Source: Alphaproteobacteria bacterium
GTDB lineage: Bacteria; Pseudomonadota; Alphaproteobacteria; Bin95
Reading direction: 5' to 3'
Assembly (NCBI GenBank): GCA_963665325.3
Contig: CAXXWS020000002.1
Span: 896,001 to 960,000 of the forward strand
Length of the DNA: 64,000 nucleotides
Below are positions 2,715 through 59,618 of the stretch, in pieces (the first letter of the stretch is position 1; each line of letters starts with the position of its first letter). Below the pieces are notes generated by a model. It worked only from the letters and a program-made list of their open reading frames with translations. It was not told the origin of the DNA and did not search any database. Position numbers and translations under genes: made by a program.

Positions 2715-4180
2715 TGCGCCGCCTCGGCATTGCCGACATTCGCGCCGGCCTTGCGGGCGGGGATTTCTCGGCGGTCGAGCTGGTCGAAGACCGGCTGGCG
2801 GCGTTGGAGGGCGCCGAGGCGCTGAACGCCGTCGTCACGCTGATGCCCGACCGGGCGCTGGAAGCCGCGCGGGCGGCCGACCGCCGGCGCGCTGCCGGCG
2901 AGCCGGCGCTGCCGCTCGATGGTGTGCCGGTCGCGGTCAAGGACCTGTTCTGCACCGAGGGACAGCGCACCACGGCCTCGTCGGCCATGCTGGAAGGCTT
3001 CGTTCCTCCTTACGAGTCGACGGTCACGGCCAATCTCATCGCGGCCGGCGCGGCGCTTGCCGCCAAGACCAATCTCGACGAGTTCGCCATGGGCTCCTCC
3101 ACTGTGACCTCGTATTTCGGCCCGGCGATCAATCCCTGGAAGGCCGAGGCCGACTCGCGCCCGCGCGCGCCCGGCGGCTCCTCCGGCGGTTCGGCCGCGC
3201 TGGTGGCGGCGTCCGTCGTTCCGGCCGCTCTCGGCACGGACACGGGCGGCTCTATCCGCCAGCCGGCGGCCTTTTCCGGCATTGTCGGCCTCAAGCCTAC
3301 TTATGGGCGCTGCTCGCGTTGGGGCATCGTGGCTTTTGCCTCTTCGCTGGACCAGGCCGGCCCGATGACCCGGAGCGTGCGCGATGCGGCCATCCTGCTC
3401 GCCGCCATGGCGGGTCACGACCCGAAGGATTCGACCAGCGCGCAGCAGACCGTGCCCGACTTCGAGGCTGCGCTCGGCGGCGGCGTGCGGGGGCTGCGCA
3501 TCGGCGTGCCGCGCGAATATCGCGTGGACGGCATGCCCGATGAGCTGGATGCGCTCTGGAAGCGGGGCGCTGCCTGGCTGAAGGAGGCCGGTGCGGAGAT
3601 CGTCGATATCTCGCTGCCGCACACGCATTATGCCCTGCCGACCTACTACATCGTCGCGCCCGCGGAGGCGTCGTCCAACCTCGCCCGCTATGACGGGGTG
3701 CGCTACGGCCTGCGCGTGTCGGCTGACGCTATCGAGGAGCAGTATGCGCGCACCCGGCGCGCCGGCTTCGGGGCCGAGGTGCGCCGGCGGGTGCTGATCG
3801 GCACCTATGTGCTCTCCGCCGGCTACTATGATGCTTACTATACCAAGGCGCAGCGTGTGCGCCGGCTGATCGCGCGCGATTTCGAGCAGGCGTTCGAGGC
3901 GGTCGATGCGGTGCTGACGCCAACTGCGCCGACCGCCGCGTTCCCGCTCGGGGAGAAGATGGACGACCCGATTGCGATGTATCTGAACGATGTCTTCACC
4001 GTGCCAGCGAGCCTGGCGGGCCTGCCCGCGGTTTCGCTGCCGGCCGGGTTGGACAGCGAGGGCATGCCGCTCGGCTTGCAGCTCATTGGAAGGCCGTTCG
4101 ACGAGGAGACGGTGTTGCGTGCGGCCGAAGCGCTGGAAGAGGCTGCCGGCTTCGACGTCGAGCCGGAGTTCGTGCTGTGA
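2711..4180 (+). CDS. gatA: Asp/Glu-tRNA amidotransferase subunit A
   Basis: Amidase signature [32 protein letters not shown]. Confidence 0.97.
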
Positions 4181-5621: not shown

Positions 5622-6392
5622 ATGGCGAAGGACAAGGCGGTTCTGATTACCGGAGCCGGCAGCGGCATCGGGGAAGCCTGCGCGCATGCGTTCGCGGCTG
5701 CGGGCGCGCGTCTGGCGTTGGCGGACATCGACCGGGCGGCGGCGGAGCGGGTCGCGGAGGCCTGCGGCGGCGTGGCAGCGGTCATCGAGGCCGATTGCGG
5801 CGATGTCGCTTCCATCGAGGCGATGGTGGAAGCGGCCGCCGGCGCGTTGGGCGGCCTCGACGCCTCGGTCAACAATGCCGGCGTCACCCGTCATGCGGAC
5901 ATCATGGACCTGACGGAGCATGACTGGGACCGCATCCACCGGGTGAATTCCAAGGGCGTCTTCTTCTGCCTGCAGAGCGTGGCGCGGCAGATGATCGCCC
6001 AGGGCAGGGGCGGGCGCATCGTCAACATCGCCTCGATTGCCGGACGCGGTTTCAAGGGGACTTCCAACGCCGCTTACGCCGCCAGCAAGGGCGCCGTCAT
6101 CTCGCTCACCAAGACCGCGGCCCAGCAATTGGGACGCCACGACATCAATGTGAACGCGGTCTGCCCGGGCGTGACCTTCACCGCTCTGGTGGAACAGCTC
6201 GTCCGCGACCGGTCCGCCGCGCGCGGCATCTCTGCCGACGAGATGCGCCGGAGCATGGAGGCCCCGATCCCCATCGGGCGGGGCAACGATCCTGCCGACA
6301 TCGCCGCGCTTTGCGTGTTCCTGGCCGGGCCTGACGCCCGCAATGTCACCGGGCAGGCCTGGAACGTGGACGGGGGGCTGGTGCCCAGCTGA
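5622..6392 (+). CDS. SDR family oxidoreductase
   Basis: TGAGSGIG, NNAG, YAASK, NVDGG; GAGGA RBS before ATG 5622. Confidence 0.93.
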   Translation: MAKDKAVLITGAGSGIGEACAHAFAAAGARLALADIDRAAAERVAEACGGVAAVIEADCGDVASIEAMVEAAAGALGGLDASVNNAGVTRHADIMDLTEHDWDRIHRVNSKGVFFCLQSVARQMIAQGRGGRIVNIASIAGRGFKGTSNAAYAASKGAVISLTKTAAQQLGRHDINVNAVCPGVTFTALVEQLVRDRSAARGISADEMRRSMEAPIPIGRGNDPADIAALCVFLAGPDARNVTGQAWNVDGGLVPS

Positions 6393-6401
6393 CCCGGGCG
6401 T

Positions 6402-7253
6402 TCAGCCCTCTATTTCGAGAACGCGGAGGCGGGCGCTTCCCGCTTCCAGTTCGGCGCCGTCTTCGATGCGGTCGAGGCGCAGCAGCGCGAGGCCAAGGCC
6501 GTTCCGGCTGGAGCGCATTTCCCCGACCGGCCGGCCTTCCGCGAGAATGCGCGTGCCGGGGTCGGCAGAGCCGTCCAGCGCCACCGGCATGAGTTGCCGG
6601 CGCACCGTGCCGCGGTAGTGCGTGCGCGCAGTTACCTCCTGCCCGACATAACAGCCCTTCTCCCAGTCCACCCCGTTCAGGCGCTCGAAGCCGCTCTCCA
6701 GCAGGAAGGCCTGGCCGGCCGGCATGTCGCGCGAGCCGTCGGGCACGCCCAGGCGGTAGCGCAGCGCCTCATAGGCGGTGAAATCGCCTTCCGGCAGTGC
6801 CGTCGGCGTGTCGGCCGCGCGGAGCAGCCGGGCCCCGAGGGCGCTGTGGCGTGGATCAATATAGGCGATGCCCCGATCGAAGGGCTCGGTGTCGCCCGGC
6901 CCGGCATCGGCGAGGCCGAAATGCGCGGCTCCATCCGGCGCTGCCTCGACCGTCCATGATGCGCTCACATCATCGATGGCGATCCTGGCCCGAAGCCGGT
7001 AGCGCTTGAGGCGTTTCGTAAGATCGTCCAGCCGGTCCGCTTCGCAGTCGAGATAAACGGTCCCGCTATCTTCGACGACGAAGACGTCGTGCAGGAACTT
7101 GCCCTGCGGCGTCAGCAGCGCGGCATAGACGGCCTCGCCGTTGCGCACCCGTTCCATGTCGTTCGAGAGCAGCCCCTGCAGAAAGCCGTGGACGTCCTCA
7201 CCGGAAAGCGCCAGAACGCCCCGGTTGGGCAATGAAATGCAGGCGGGGATCAT
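6402..7253 (-). CDS. ygfZ: Folate-binding Fe-S repair / tRNA-modifying protein YgfZ
   Basis: KGCYVGQE signature, FLQGLLSND, LLTPQGK. Confidence 0.92.
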   Translation of the reverse strand: MIPACISLPNRGVLALSGEDVHGFLQGLLSNDMERVRNGEAVYAALLTPQGKFLHDVFVVEDSGTVYLDCEADRLDDLTKRLKRYRLRARIAIDDVSASWTVEAAPDGAAHFGLADAGPGDTEPFDRGIAYIDPRHSALGARLLRAADTPTALPEGDFTAYEALRYRLGVPDGSRDMPAGQAFLLESGFERLNGVDWEKGCYVGQEVTARTHYRGTVRRQLMPVALDGSADPGTRILAEGRPVGEMRSSRNGLGLALLRLDRIEDGAELEAGSARLRVLEIEG

Positions 7254-37464: not shown

Positions 37465-37857
37465 TCAAAGAAGCTCGATTTCCGCGCCGTGGCCGGCGGC
37501 GCCCGCGAGCCGCCGATCGCGCGTGACCAGCGGCGCGTCCAGCGCTTCGGCAAGGGCGACATAGACGGCGTCATAGGCCGTGAAATTGTGCCGCAAATCC
37601 CATACCCGAGGCAGCAGAATGTCATGCGGATACCGCCGGATGGGCATGTCGGCGAGGTCCGCCACGGCCTCGCGACCGCGCCGGTCGTCGATCTCTCCCG
37701 CCAGGACGTATCGGCGAAGAACATGGGCGGTTTCGACATCGATGAGATGCGGCGCGGCGACGGAGTCGCCCGAATCGAAGAGCCGCGCCGCGACGGCTCC
37801 GGCGGCGTCCGAGGGCAGAAGCAGTTCGATTAGGGCGGAGGCGTCGACGACGATCAC
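37465..37857 (-). CDS. vapC: VapC PIN-domain toxin
   Basis: VIVVDASAL, AYDAVYVALAEALDAPLVTRD. Confidence 0.92.
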   Translation of the reverse strand: MIVVDASALIELLLPSDAAGAVAARLFDSGDSVAAPHLIDVETAHVLRRYVLAGEIDDRRGREAVADLADMPIRRYPHDILLPRVWDLRHNFTAYDAVYVALAEALDAPLVTRDRRLAGAAGHGAEIELL

Positions 37858-38084
37858 CGGTTGTCGCGTTCCCGGCGGACCGCCTCGGCGGGCGGCACCG
37901 AGGGCGACACGCTCGCGCGGCTTGCAATGCGCCTGCGCAACTCGTCGACGGTCGGCCGCGCTGCAACCTCGCGAATCTCGGCGAGCAGGAAGTCGGAGAG
38001 AGACATGCCGGCCAGCGCGGCCCGCGCCTTGAGCGTGCGGTGCAGCGTTTCGGGGACGTTGCGAATCTGGATCATGGTGGGCAT
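37854..38084 (-). CDS. FitA-like ribbon-helix-helix antitoxin
   Basis: IQIRNVPETLHRTLKARAALAGMSLSDFL; GTGA-coupled to vapC. Confidence 0.88.
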   Translation of the reverse strand: MPTMIQIRNVPETLHRTLKARAALAGMSLSDFLLAEIREVAARPTVDELRRRIASRASVSPSVPPAEAVRRERDNR

Positions 38085-38119
38085 GTGAAAAACATGCTTT
38101 CATCATATTTGAATGTCAA
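38082..38119 (-). promoter_or_regulatory. Promoter/operator of the TA operon, probably leaderless
   Basis: TTGACA-17 nt-CATGTT-6 nt-ATG; palindrome CATGT-N5-ACATG covers the -10 element and start codon. Confidence 0.55.
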
Positions 38120-39476: not shown

Positions 39477-39536
39477 GCGGCCGACCGGGGGTTTCGGCAG
39501 CCGATTTGCAATCTGGCAAAATTTTCCTTCCAGGGG

Positions 39537-39750
39537 GCTTGACCACAAAATATCTATGGTAGAATGGATTCGAGGGAAGAGGCATCCGCGCGGACCGCTT
39601 CCCTTCGCCCGGCCCGGCCGGACAGACCCCGATTCAGCAGACAGGTGAAGTGTGCCCTGCGTCCGGCTCGCGCGCGCAATCAGGCGCGCGAACCGCGCCG
39701 GCGCAAAGGCGCGCCCCCGCGCGCGCACGATACGCGCGAAAAAGGGGGGC
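39537..39750 (+). repeat. Promoter-like motif plus structured GC-rich leader, copy A (homologous to 56885-57135)
   Basis: GCTTGAC-N16-TAGAATGG, then hairpins; core GCAATCAGGCGCGCGA(A/G)CCGCGCCG is 24/25 identical to copy B. Confidence 0.8.
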
Positions 39751-39915
39751 GTCCGGAACAGGCAGCAGAGTGAACGAAACAAAAACTGGAGAGACCGATG
39801 AGAAGCATGATGACTCCGTGCGCCGCCGGGCTGCACGCAGCCTGTCGGCAAGCCGCCGGCAGGGAGACGGTTGCGGTTGCCCGCCGCGAGCCGCATCGTG
39901 CTGCCGGGAGGAAGC

Positions 39916-40512
39916 ATGGGGACCATGGACCCGGACCTGACCCTTATCGAGCGGGACCGTTCCTGCCTCGTGGTCATCGACGTGCAGCAGCATTTCCTCG
40001 ACAAGCTGCCGCCCGGCTGGCGCGTCCCGCTGGTAGAGCGCATCGCCTGGCTGATGCGGGCGGCGCGCGCGCTTGATATTCCGGTCGTCGCCACCGCCGA
40101 GGACATGGAGCGCCTCGGGCCGCTGGTGCCGGAGCTTGCCCGCTGCCTTCCCCCGGATGCGCCGCCGGTCTTCGACAAGACGGTCTTCGGAGCGTGGGGC
40201 CAGTCGGATATTCGCGCCGCGCTGGAGGGATCGGGGCGGGACAGCTTCGTGCTGGCCGGGTTGGAGACCGACGTATGCGTGGCCCAGTCTGCCCTCGGGC
40301 TCAGGGCGGGCGGTTGTCGGGTGGCGGTGGTGGCCGACGCCTGCGGCTCACCGCCGCCGAACCACGAATACGGGCTCCGGCGCCTGGGCAATACCGGGAT
40401 CGTGCTCACCACCGTCAAGGGCGTGTTCTACGAGTGGGCGCGGGACGTGGAGGCCGCTTCCCGGGTGCGCGCGGAACTGGGCGGCCCCGGCCCGCCGGGC
40501 GTCATCCTGTAG
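39916..40512 (+). CDS. Isochorismatase family hydrolase
   Basis: LVVIDVQ, FDKTVFGA, AGLETDVCVAQS, VADACGS. Confidence 0.9.
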   Translation: MGTMDPDLTLIERDRSCLVVIDVQQHFLDKLPPGWRVPLVERIAWLMRAARALDIPVVATAEDMERLGPLVPELARCLPPDAPPVFDKTVFGAWGQSDIRAALEGSGRDSFVLAGLETDVCVAQSALGLRAGGCRVAVVADACGSPPPNHEYGLRRLGNTGIVLTTVKGVFYEWARDVEAASRVRAELGGPGPPGVIL

Positions 40513-40554
40513 GCGCGTCATGCCCGGCGAACGGCGCTGCGGCGCAAGGCGCCT

Positions 40555-40581
40555 CATGACAAAACATGACATTTCATGACA
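40555..40581 (+). repeat. 10-bp-periodic CATGAC array (3 units), copy A
   Basis: CATGACAAAA CATGACATTT CATGACA. Confidence 0.85.
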
Positions 40582-40655
40582 TCCCGGTGGAGTGGGCCCA
40601 CTCCGGCCGGGGGGGGGTAGTGGCGGTACTGCCGCACCGCCTCCGCAAATCCGGG

Positions 40656-56365: not shown

Positions 56366-56402
56366 TGTCATGGACTGTCATGAAATGTCATGTTTCGTCA
56401 TG
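56366..56402 (-). repeat. 10-bp-periodic CATGAC array (4 units), copy B
   Basis: Minus strand CATGACGAAA CATGACATTT CATGACAGTC CATGACA. Confidence 0.85.
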
Positions 56403-56846
56403 GAGGCCCGCCGCGACGCCTTGCTTCTCCCCGCCGCCGCCGGTCTGCGCGGCCAGAGCTTTTTTCTTCCTCTTTTTCCTCTTCCTCCTGCGTTCTTTCC
56501 GGCGGTCCTGCCGTTCGGCCCATGCGTAGAACTCGGGCGTGTCCTGGCTGCCGGTCCATATCTTGCCGAGATAGTGGAACTCGTCCCCGCTGCCGTCATG
56601 GTCGTCCTCGCCGGGGTCCGGGGCCGGTTCGGGCCGGTGCCGGGCGCTCCAGTCGAGCACGGCGAGGAGCTGGCGCAGATGGGCGAGTTGGGCGCGTCCG
56701 GCGCGGTGGTGTTCGGCGCGGTCGCGGTCGTCCAGGGGCGGCGGCTCCGGGTTCATGTCTTCTGCACAGGCAGCGGCGAGGGCTTCGGCGGCAGGGGCAA
56801 AGTGCTCCTGCAGCGCCGCCGCCAGTTGGGGGCGGGGGTCGGTCAC
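56388..56846 (-). CDS. Hypothetical protein with acidic linker and poly-basic C-terminal tract
   Basis: Host-like codons, AGGAGG 11 nt upstream of GTG, RRKERRRKRKKRKKK; stop falls inside the CATGAC array. Confidence 0.6.
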   Translation of the reverse strand: MTDPRPQLAAALQEHFAPAAEALAAACAEDMNPEPPPLDDRDRAEHHRAGRAQLAHLRQLLAVLDWSARHRPEPAPDPGEDDHDGSGDEFHYLGKIWTGSQDTPEFYAWAERQDRRKERRRKRKKRKKKALAAQTGGGGEKQGVAAGLHDET

Positions 56847-56884
56847 GGTCGTCCATGCCTCCTTCGGGGCCAGGGGCGGGACGG

Positions 56885-57135
56885 GGGGTCCCTGTTTCGC
56901 GCGTAATGTGTGCGCGGGGGGGCGGGCCTAACGCGGCGGCGCGGCTCGCGCGCCTGATTGCCCGCGCGCCCGCACGCGATGCGGCTGGCCGGGCGCGGGA
57001 CGCACCTTTCCCGTCCGCTCGCGCCGGGGGTTTGCGGCCCCCAGCCATTGCTTCCCTGCGCAGAAAAGCGGAAGGGCGGCCCCGGGAGCCGCCCTTCTCC
57101 ATGCCCATTCTACACCATTCTGCCCAAAGTCAAGC
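56885..57135 (-). repeat. Promoter-like motif plus structured leader, copy B (homologous to 39537-39750)
   Basis: GCTTGAC-N16-TAGAATGG, perfect 10-bp stem at 57071-57097, conserved core and TACGCGCGAAA.AGGG. Confidence 0.8.
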
Positions 57136-57143
57136 AGTTTTGG

Positions 57144-57169
57144 GAACAAAAACCGAAAATATCCGGAAC
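57144..57169. promoter_or_regulatory. Possible alphaproteobacterial LexA-type boxes (GAAC-N7-GAAA-N7-GAAC)
   Basis: Two overlapping one-mismatch matches to GAAC-N7-GAAC just upstream of the copy-B -35. Confidence 0.4.
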
Positions 57170-58358: not shown

Positions 58359-59618
58359 TGGAGTGGGCCCCTGGGGCCGGACAGGCGGCTTGAAATGATT
58401 TGACCGGTGGGTCGGGCATTCGAAGGATCGACGCCCATGGCCAAGCACCGAACCCACCGCACCCACGGCATCGCCTTCAAGCGCCAGGTCGTTCAGGAGT
58501 ATCTCGCCGGCGAGACGCTTCACGGCCTGGCCCGTCGGCACGAGCTCTCCCGCACCCTGATCCGGATCTGGGTGGACAAGTACGAGGCCGGCGCCTTCGA
58601 CGAGGACGCCGAGGCGGCCGACACGATCCAGGAATACGAGGCCCGGATCGCGGCCCTCGAGCGCCTGGTCGGCAAGCAGGCCCTGGAGCTCGAGTTCCTA
58701 AAGGGGGCTCAGCGGCACGGACGACGGCCGAGAAACGCGCCCATGTCCGTCATCACCGGCCCGAAGGCCTCTCCGTCGCCGAAGGATGCCGACTGATGGG
58801 GATCGCGCGCTCCACCTACTACGACAAGCCCAAGAGCTCGGCAGACGACACCGCCCTGGTCGAGGCCATGCACACGATCAAGGACGAGTTCGAGGCCTAC
58901 GGATGGCGCCGCATGCAGGCGGCGCTCAGGCATCGGGGCTGGGTGGTGAACCACAAGAAGATCAAGCGCCTGATGCGCGAGCATGCCCTGCAACCGCCGC
59001 GCCGGCGTCGTTTCGTCGCCACCACCGACAGCGATCACGACGAGCCCGTCTTCCCCGATCGCTCCAGAGACCGCGAGATCGATGGCCCGAACCAGCTCTG
59101 GGTCGCCGATCTGACCTACATCGCGATCCTCGGCGGCTTTGTCTATCTGGCGGCGATCATGGATGCGTGGTCGCGGCGCATCGTGGGTTACGCGGTCGGC
59201 CGACGGATCAATGCCCGGCTGACCGTTGCGGCGCTGGCGACGGCGATCGAGCATCGCAACCCGCTGCCCGGCTGCATCCATCACTCCGATAGAGGCTCGC
59301 AATACGCCGCCCAAGCCTACCGAGCTCTGCTCGACGAACACGGCCTGGTCGGCTCGATGGGCCGGCGTGGCAACCCCTACGACAACGCGATGATGGAAAG
59401 CTTCATGAAGACGCTGAAGGTCGAGGGCGTCTATCCCATGGCCTTCGAGAGTGCGGAAGACGACGCTGAACACCTGCCGCGCTTCATCGACAGCTATAAC
59501 GAGAGACGCCTACACTCCGCCCTCGGATATCTCAGCCCCAACCGTTTCGAAAAGGAACAACCCCGCACCCCGGTCAAATCCGCCGCATGAAACTGTCCGG
59601 CCCCAAGGGCCCACTCCA
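58359..59618 (+). mobile_element. IS3-family insertion sequence
   Basis: 26-bp IRs TGGAGTGGGCCC(C/T)TGGGGCCGGACAG, 3-bp target duplication CTG, orfA/orfB. Confidence 0.94.
58437..59590 (+). CDS. IS3 transposase OrfA (58437-58796) / OrfB (-1 frame, to 59590)
   Basis: HTH OrfA; candidate slippery A AAG GGG at 58700; WVADLTY, HHSDRGSQY, DNAMMESF, RLHSALGY. Confidence 0.92.

Follow-up and report, generated by a model that had tools for sequence, protein, structure and literature searches.

The window analysed here is a stretch of 64,000 nucleotides from an Alphaproteobacteria bacterium (contig CAXXWS020000002.1, positions 896,001 to 960,000). Its own genome, which we call G000, comprises 5.58 Mb in five contigs; the other genomes are labelled G001 onward. 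Two loci in the window, copy A at 39537-40604 on the plus strand and copy B at 57150-56366 on the minus strand, carry the same parts in the same order: a promoter, a 5′ hairpin, a GC-rich leader, a coding region and an array of CATGAC units. This shared architecture is a real observation, and both copies belong to a dispersed family of 66-70 members in G000. Their parts are listed below.

39505-39538, plus strand: AT-rich zone upstream of copy A, a degenerate counterpart of TTTGTTC...GAAATAATTCC, and approximately the left limit of similarity among members
39539-39565, plus strand: promoter of copy A, with TTGACC at 39539-39544, a 15-nt spacer and TAGAAT at 39560-39565
39574-39603, plus strand: 5′ hairpin (H1) of copy A, with arms GGGAAGAGGC and CCGCTTCCC around a loop
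39630-39787, plus strand: GC-rich leader of copy A, a covariance-model match at G000 C3:935630-935787
39676-39704, plus strand: invariant core GCAATCAGGCGCGCGAACCGCGCCGGCGC within the leader of copy A
39788-39800, plus strand: ribosome-binding site (RBS) GGAGAG and ATG of copy A, the start of the family's short open reading frame (ORF), here a 92-aa frame at 39798-40076
39916-40512, plus strand: cargo of copy A, an isochorismatase-family gene (Pfam PF00857, E 3.5e-28)
40555-40581, plus strand: array of copy A, three CATGAC units with a 10-bp period, giving TGA and ATG in three frames
40582-40604, plus strand: 3′ tail of copy A, ATCCCGG and the hairpin GGAGTGGGCCCACTCC (40589-40604)
57107-57150, minus strand: upstream motif and promoter of copy B, with TTTGTTC at 57150-57144, TTGACT at 57133-57128, a 15-nt spacer and TAGAAT at 57112-57107
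57071-57097, minus strand: H1 of copy B, a 12-bp stem followed by T-rich CGCTTTTCTG, scored as terminator-like
56847-57070, minus strand: leader of copy B, with its core at 56961-56946
56388-56846, minus strand: ORF of copy B, 152 aa with a GTG start, of the 'MTATDPRP...' family, its final HDET and stop lying inside the array
56366-56402, minus strand: array of copy B, four CATGAC units with a 10-bp period

The pattern GCTTGAC-N16-TAGAATGG lies at 39537-39567 (+) in copy A and at 57135-57105 (-) in copy B with identical spacing; read as hexamers, it gives TTGACC (A) or TTGACT (B), a 15-nt spacer and TAGAAT. The two leaders can be aligned over ~250 nt and contain an identical 16-mer, GCAATCAGGCGCGCGA (39676-39691 in A, 56961-56946 in B). 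An earlier description of the window made from its letters (hereafter the sequence-only reading) had proposed these four ordered parts, and each was found where it had been placed. The array identity of 26/27 that it gave for the two copies was confirmed, copy B having an extra fourth unit. It had also described the element as lacking a transposase and as having asymmetric ends, unlike a miniature inverted-repeat transposable element (MITE). Both points extend to the family: no member carries a transposase, and the ends are asymmetric with no inverted repeat joining them. In A and B themselves, there were no terminal inverted repeats, no inverted repeat linking the 5′ zone with the array or tail at the other end, and no flanking duplication.

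The description of a two-copy element holds for the window alone. Across G000, the core (≤1 mismatch) occurred 66 times and CATGACATTTCATGACA 56 times, and neither pattern occurred when read backwards, which excludes chance. We built a covariance model from 80 leader copies and ran it on all 37 genomes of the order; its counts are matches among at most the best 78 scored candidates per genome and are therefore lower bounds. It found at least 70 leader copies in G000, which also contains 64 three-unit CATGAC arrays. A co-oriented three-unit array lay downstream of the core within 400 bp in 41 of 66 cases, at 401-700 bp in 5, at 701-1300 bp in 7 and at 1301-3000 bp in 4; the remaining 9 had none by the strict pattern. 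No core (0/66) had an array in the opposite orientation within 3 kb. Seen from the other end, 61 of the 64 arrays had a core within 3 kb upstream, and the three others still had a promoter and hairpin or a truncated family ORF. The copies are intergenic and lie on four of the five contigs. The sequence-only reading had anticipated such a dispersed family of co-oriented leader-array pairs, and this was borne out (an array within 700 bp for 46/66 cores and within 3 kb for a further 11). The autonomous copy with a recombinase, HUH or reverse transcriptase gene that it had also envisaged was not seen among the copies examined.

We sampled the genus as 17 genomes (G000 and 16 other species) and searched 41 genomes, including G000, for the 24-nt core with ≤2 mismatches. 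The core was present in 14 of the 41, namely G000 and 13 of the 16 other species of the genus, at 3 to 116 per positive genome. It was found in none of 8 genomes from two other genera of the family and in none of 16 from other families. The covariance model returned the identical 14 positive genomes among the 37 of the order, recovered at least 61 diverged copies in G012, and detected no leader in 20 genomes of two sister genera, where arrays were not found either. Three-unit arrays were present in exactly the 14 of 17 genus genomes that have the leader. G001, G003 and G014 had neither leader nor arrays, and at the flanking kinase gene these genomes diverge most from the window (78-81% vs. 85-91% for the others). 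In an exact-match scan with one genome per species, the matches listed came from metagenome-assembled genomes of uncultivated Alphaproteobacteria or Rhodospirillales and from one contig titled Bryobacterales. This contig (L054; L-numbered loci were fetched from relatives) is the sole record among the matches listed that is not titled Alphaproteobacteria or Rhodospirillales. At ~5850-6820 it carries four leader cores in tandem within ~1 kb, which could reflect a binning error, transfer or tandem amplification.

An alignment of 66 copies showed that the upstream zone of the family consists of TTTGTTC, ~18 nt and then GAAATAATTCC. The promoter hexamers and their 15-nt spacing are kept in nearly all of these copies, and the spacer sequence is variable. 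The promoter would fit the Caulobacter housekeeping consensus, TTGACgS-N10-14-GCtANAWC. The arms of H1 covary: in 118 distinct copies, a copy's own arms paired at -16.7 kcal/mol compared with -13.7 kcal/mol for swapped arms (Wilcoxon p 5e-8), and native pairing was the better in 73%. In the leader, the core GCAATCAGGCGCGCGAACCGCGCCGGCGC and the motifs GATACGCGCG and AAACAGGG are nearly invariant, the 24-nt core being kept with ≤2 mismatches in hundreds of copies over 13 species. The invariant motifs AAUCAGG, CGAAC, GAUAC and GAAACAGGG look unpaired and lie between GC-rich segments. RNAalifold, applied to the leader alignments, returned the invariant GGCGCG/CGCGCC hairpin alone; in a column-pair scan of alignment A3, double-sided changes numbered at most one per helix; and native core duplexes did not differ from swapped ones in the 51 sequences caught by the anchor pattern (-31.5 vs. 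-31.6 kcal/mol, p 0.86). Because none of the three tests gave compensatory support, we claim no structure for the core; the GCGC-rich sequence of the leader leaves such tests little power there. Some copies contain a 47-48-nt unit (GGCGGCGTCAACGCCGCCATCTGCAATGTTCGCCGCGTTCGGCGCG) in one to four tandem repeats within the distal GC hairpin of the leader (G000 C3:1198917, C4:243224, C4:746647 and C1:2384764). An RBS and ATG follow in 132 of 148 units; their median distance from the core start is 136 nt.

The arrays consist of two to four CATGAC units. Their 10-bp period means that three units put TGA and an overlapping ATG in all three frames, and the ORFs end inside the array, typically with HD[KER][TS] and a stop or with ...KHDIS. 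Similarity among members fades 12-18 nt past the last CATGAC unit (167 array ends). PhoB-type (OmpR family) sites are direct TGTCAT repeats with an 11-bp period upstream of a -10 box, and we considered the array as such a site. Its reverse complement reads TGTCAT-N4 at a 10-bp period with no -10-like box on that strand, which departs from this definition and makes the idea a lead at most; TGTCAT-type pairs in G000 number 127 at period 10 versus 3 at period 11. One of these three, at C4:435605 (-; index 668446 on the reverse-complemented contig), resembles a canonical Pho box (CTGTCAT-CGCG-CTGTCAC with an 11-bp period, followed by the box GCTACACT and ATG).

The family was absent from the reference collections searched at the nucleotide level. 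Rfam 15 gave no match in the window at the gathering threshold, in line with the sequence-only reading, which had recognised no named family; at E up to 10, locus A drew chance-level matches alone (E ≥2). BLASTN of the leader against plasmids and phages gave no match, and the exact 24-nt core was found in none of 2.9 million viral contigs.

A unit may encode either of two family-specific proteins, have a short frame that is possibly decayed or, in rare cases, carry a host gene. One of the two proteins has 326 aa. Its ORF occurs in five full 1.45-kb copies in G000, with proteins 92-100% identical, alongside ~50 short copies. Many intact copies are present in 12 other genomes and, with that query, none in G001, G003, G009 or G014; in public data the family comprises at least 363 clusters. 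Residues 11-80 match the SPP1/SF6 small-terminase DNA-binding domain (Pfam PF03592, E 1.2e-12), covering just profile positions 2-71 of 141, and residues 10-58 match PDB 2cmp, 4zc3 and 3zqp (E 2e-4 to 8e-4). Matches in PHROGs were exclusively to terminase-small-subunit families. The predicted structure has a mean pLDDT of 55.9, with ~90 at residues 11-60 and long helices and disorder elsewhere. We rejected an assignment as a full small terminase: beyond ~70 residues the protein is helical or disordered, with no recognisable oligomerisation core. It matched no family in PADLOC or NCBIfam and had just distant N-terminal relatives in the viral collection. The five terminase-like copies are flanked by unrelated host DNA with no phage genes; large terminases were not searched for genome-wide.

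The other family-specific protein is that of copy B. The sequence-only reading had paired an isochorismatase in A with an orphan in B; the former was correct, and the latter was not. The MTATDPRP family has 88 homologous clusters, mostly of 190-235 aa, and the copy B ORF is a short member. This protein had no match in Pfam, PADLOC or NCBIfam, and a single weak one in PHROGs, to a family of unknown function (E 0.0012). It shares with the C-terminal part of the 326-aa protein an aromatic motif before an arginine/lysine-rich stretch, and the ORFs of both families all end in the array as HD[KER][TS] and a stop. The remaining frames are short (11-65 aa), for example MPKT.SR.NR.EYPEP, and shift between copies of the MPKT subfamily; 105 of 132 were open to the array, compared with 175 of 264 control frames. 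The alphaproteobacterial LexA (SOS) box is GTTC-N7-GTTC at a promoter, and a relation of the family to it is at most a lead. With ≤1 mismatch, this motif was found in 14 of 26 MTATDPRP-type copies, in 2 of 46 MPKT copies and in none of 20 terminase-like ones; random windows had it in 157 of 3000 cases. In the family, the first half-site is mostly TTTC or ATTC; copy B has TTTC-N7-GTTC directly upstream of its -35 hexamer.

Capture or swapping of cargo, which the sequence-only reading had proposed, proved to be rare. The core-array gap was 100-399 bp in 124 of 157 units (G000 pooled with the loci fetched from relatives), and the isochorismatase of copy A is the sole clearly foreign cargo seen. 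The other long inserts examined were a family-specific ORF, a later insertion sequence (IS) transposase insertion, a 1.1-kb repeat or an unrelated neighbouring gene. The repeat is at least 1.1 kb long and 99.55% identical between G000 C1:1708390 and C1:1919200. In two copies it is found at the array or immediately beyond it, possibly as an IS with the array as its target.

RNA libraries contain members of the family, in pieces that need not come from copy A or B. Contigs from four libraries (X17-X20, two studies) include pieces that join the leader end to the array. These pieces skip the cargo of copy A and, at their loose ends, match other compact copies. They are covered to about the same depth as the few genes with any coverage in the 18.5 kb compared, most of which is uncovered.

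The copies in G000 are diverged. The closest are the five terminase-like units, at ~90-94% over 1.0-1.4 kb; other pairs give shorter alignments, mostly at 79-92%, and there are no near-identical copies. Even among the five, similarity at the 5′ edge is lost gradually, in the stretch from the -10 box to TTTGTTC, and neither a common flank nor a duplication is seen. Relatives offered 63 element sites with sufficiently long flanks. For 26 of these, both flanks were collinear in G000, where 10 intervals hold a core and 16 are empty. The empty sites in relatives foreseen by the sequence-only reading thus exist (16/26 comparable sites, G006 at locus A and G012 at locus B). Six of the ten filled orthologous pairs align at just ~50% by region and may represent different subfamilies or orientations. 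Inspected filled and empty sites carry several nested insertions, and exact insertion ends are unreadable.

The two loci of the window differ among relatives. In G016, locus A runs from the transporter gene through promoter and leader to an additional insertion, the isochorismatase gene and two arrays. In G011, ~200 nt of leader are missing; the promoter, the array and the 5′ half of the hairpin are kept. In G006, 60 bp separate the transporter and isochorismatase genes, and promoter, leader and array are all lacking, an arrangement that could reflect either a state before capture or a double loss. G005 and G007 also have a leader-isochorismatase-array unit (77-78% identity), located elsewhere than beside the transporter gene, with similarity running from the start-site region to ~10-25 nt beyond the array. 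Locus B is present beside the same reductase gene in G011 and absent in G012, where a different gene lies 55 bp upstream of the reductase; in G016, its two flanks are 1.6 Mb apart.

One copy has also received a large insertion. At G000 C1:777089-817330, an island of ~40 kb splits one family copy at the leader motif ACGCGATAC and is flanked by a 9-bp direct repeat, ACGCGATAC. The island begins with three tandem tyrosine-recombinase-like genes (375, 435 and 462 aa), and beyond it the 3′ part of the leader, the ORF and the array resume at C1:817133. Contig C4 has a copy of the first 6.5 kb of the island (99.4% identical), and G000 contains ~17 paralogous tandem recombinase sets, of which 3 lie within 2 kb of a family copy and 14 do not. 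With the synteny breaks at locus B and the island in a leader, the family is a marker of genome rearrangement.

Several other elements lie in or near family copies. A second repeat, TGGAGTGGGCCCCTGGGTCCGGACAGTTTGGTTGAA..AATTGAC, is found directly 3′ of the CATGAC array at several loci (G000 C1:1379550 and C4:114320) and, in G006, after the isochorismatase gene without an array (L128 3440-3490); it may be the end of another element. Palindromic repeats GTCGCCCCGGACCCC...GGGGTCCGGGGCGAC within or beside family copies (L124 from G016 at 3100-3340, L086 and other relatives) look like a separate MITE- or REP-like family. In the window, overlapping ORFs of 129 and 396 aa at 58400-59590 (+), by eye like IS3-family OrfA/OrfB, lie 1.2 kb from the promoter side of copy B. 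A putative toxin-antitoxin pair at 37465-38106 (-), also judged by eye (a 76-aa ribbon-helix-helix-like protein and a PIN-domain-like one), adjoins the upstream side of the transporter gene that flanks copy A.

We favour, with about an even chance of being right, a reading in which the units are a lineage-specific family of co-regulated expression cassettes that is maintained by selection and was spread duplicatively, with ~70 cassettes in G000 and ~45 to more than 110 in 13 sister species. Each cassette would lead from a housekeeping-type promoter with its AT-rich zone through the covarying 5′ hairpin and a GC-rich leader of ~170-250 nt with an invariant ~30-nt core to a purine-rich RBS and start, the ORF and the array. 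The 10-bp-periodic CATGAC units would terminate translation whatever the incoming frame. The family would have originated after the split of the three most divergent species of the genus and multiplied duplicatively in the ancestor of the sub-clade, leaving no transposase, terminal inverted repeats or target duplication; thereafter it would have been inherited mostly vertically, with slow turnover through gains, losses and rearrangements at copies. The invariant core could be bound by a trans-acting protein or RNA that is common to all units and co-regulates them, and the array could be a protein-binding or RNA 3′-end element with an added role in insulating or coupling the gene downstream. 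The conserved motifs most likely serve as recognition sites of a common factor, and the array may mark the 3′ end of an RNA or be contacted by protein on a single face of the helix. Selection on each copy is suggested by the promoter geometry, hairpin, core and RBS distance, which are kept through 7-25% divergence in 14 species. Diverged copies (≤93%) with an invariant core likewise point to selection and away from the recent expansion of a selfish MITE. Further support for the cassette reading comes from the linkage and co-orientation of core and array, their common phyletic distribution, the filled and empty sites, the states of locus A in G016, G011 and G006, the pieces in RNA libraries and the island integrated in a leader.

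Several observations weigh against these cassettes as we picture them. An E. coli-type promoter scan, which needs a 16-18-nt spacer, flagged neither the A nor the B promoter. The core region showed no double-sided changes in 80 sequences, leaving RNA structure there unproven, and coding by the short ORFs is unproven as well, because the frames shift and their openness is barely above that of controls. The downstream gene was co-oriented with the unit in 43 of 64 cases, a bias of 43 versus 21 obtained with a crude home-made gene caller that reached 78% of the genome. The RNA pieces are contigs without transcript ends or strand and could stem from DNA carry-over. The reading also relies on a hypothetical trans-factor and does not account for the route of multiplication.

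The copies could instead be non-autonomous transposable elements, MITE-like or of the 'mobile promoter' kind, moved in trans by a recombinase or an IS transposase that would use the conserved parts as its recognition sites. Their number, their intergenic positions on four of five contigs and the filled and empty sites among species speak for this, as do the isochorismatase unit that G005 and G007 carry apart from the transporter gene and the ~17 tandem recombinase sets with three near a copy; by analogy, the 10-bp direct repeats at one end could also resemble multiple enzyme-binding sites. We nevertheless consider such an element unlikely. The best pair of copies reaches ~93-94% and nothing is near-identical, the 5′ edge is fuzzy, and terminal inverted repeats and target duplications are absent. 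Conservation of the core far exceeds that of the remainder of these old copies, unlike in a neutrally decaying MITE, and at locus A the promoter/leader and the array are separately present or absent (G011, G006). Most of the recombinase sets, 14 of ~17, are not near any copy.

It is quite unlikely, in our estimate, that the product is a non-coding RNA (a small RNA, a ribozyme or a riboswitch-like leader) and the short ORFs are incidental. A strong promoter, a covarying 5′ hairpin and invariant, unpaired-looking motifs between GC-rich segments would suit an RNA, MPKT-subfamily frames shift although the nucleotide sequence is kept, and a site-specific island has integrated in a leader, as happens at tRNA genes. 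Against this stand the missing Rfam match and the lack of covariation in the core, the RBS and ATG at a fixed distance, two subfamilies that clearly encode conserved proteins, and the isochorismatase unit of G011, which persists with its leader deleted. The terminase-like protein raises another alternative, a packaging- or partition-like module in which the CATGAC arrays would be phased pac-like sites for this protein and the family would mark chromosomal sites for a phage, satellite or gene-transfer-agent machine. Pac sites lie in or beside terS genes as phased repeats, and the gene with the small-terminase DNA-binding domain ends in the array and is intact in five copies in G000 and in many in 12 other genomes. 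However, G009 has at least 48 leader and 29 array matches and no 326-aa protein by that query, the likeness to terminases is confined to the first ~70 residues, and neither flanking phage genes nor an exact core in the 2.9 million viral contigs were found; we regard this module as very improbable.

The favoured cassette family has a bolder variant, which we doubt, in which one trans-factor recognises the core and array of self-propagating 'plug-in' cassettes as a new kind of module. The factor would perhaps be the 326-aa terminase-like DNA-binding protein or the MTATDPRP protein. The module would supply a promoter, a protective 5′ hairpin, the core leader, an RBS and a three-frame stop/restart array, and dozens of units with an occasional captured host gene would form one regulon and a landing pad for islands.

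If each copy of the favoured cassette family is under selection, ~1% of the genome (~70 units of 0.4-1.5 kb) would be one uniform expression module without a described counterpart, and one uncultivated group of alphaproteobacteria would possess a large lineage-specific regulon or RNA family. If the copies are selfish DNA, their asymmetric ends, missing enzyme gene and invariant core would point to an unrecognised route of DNA mobilisation. The family offers compact natural parts, namely a promoter, a 5′ stabiliser and a three-frame stop, and is a likely cause of fragmented assemblies in the genus.

We compared the family with known systems; the literature on repeats and promoters in related symbionts yielded nothing relevant among the papers listed, in searches not aimed at whether the element is already published. 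We class it with dispersed promoter-bearing repeats or cassettes, because the MITE, integron-cassette and Rfam tests failed and the terminase comparison held for the N-terminus alone; that it is categorically new instead has, in our view, a small chance. MITE/IS pairs are similar in having many short copies beside fewer gene-bearing long ones (here ~50 versus five of 1.45 kb). The protein of the long copies, however, has a DNA-binding domain with helices and disorder in place of a transposase fold, and the copies are old. As a MITE, the family was rejected for want of terminal inverted repeats, target duplication, sharp ends and a transposase-bearing relative; it does show presence/absence polymorphism at orthologous sites (10 filled and 16 empty of 26).

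Integron cassettes also have a conserved 3′ element after a variable ORF, and the isochorismatase unit resembles a captured gene. They are promoterless and arrayed by an integrase at attI, whereas the units of this family bear promoters and are dispersed. Membership was rejected: the 3′ element consists of direct repeats with no attC-like imperfect palindrome, the units lie over four contigs, and foreign cargo is rare. Phage morons and the late-operon leaders ahead of terS are stand-alone promoter-gene-stop units. The family is likewise built of stand-alone units, and one subfamily places a hairpin-bearing leader before a terS-like gene, but its members are not inside prophages, number dozens per genome and have a core without an exact viral match.

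Pneumococcal BOX and neisserial Correia elements are 100-350 bp long, the latter with terminal inverted repeats and TA duplication. Like the family, they are high-copy, intergenic and modular with variable internal modules, to which the 47-48-nt leader unit and the two to four CATGAC units are comparable; they are transcribed, can carry promoters and affect neighbours. The family differs in its asymmetric ends, its own start codon and ORF, and the 150-330-aa proteins of its subfamilies. Mobile or reused prokaryotic promoters (PMC3575422) are reported as sequences that recur upstream of unrelated genes and can rewire transcription. With these the family has in common a promoter-bearing repeat within one genome, to which it adds a long leader, an RBS and ORF, and a 3′ array, in ~70 copies and in one genus.

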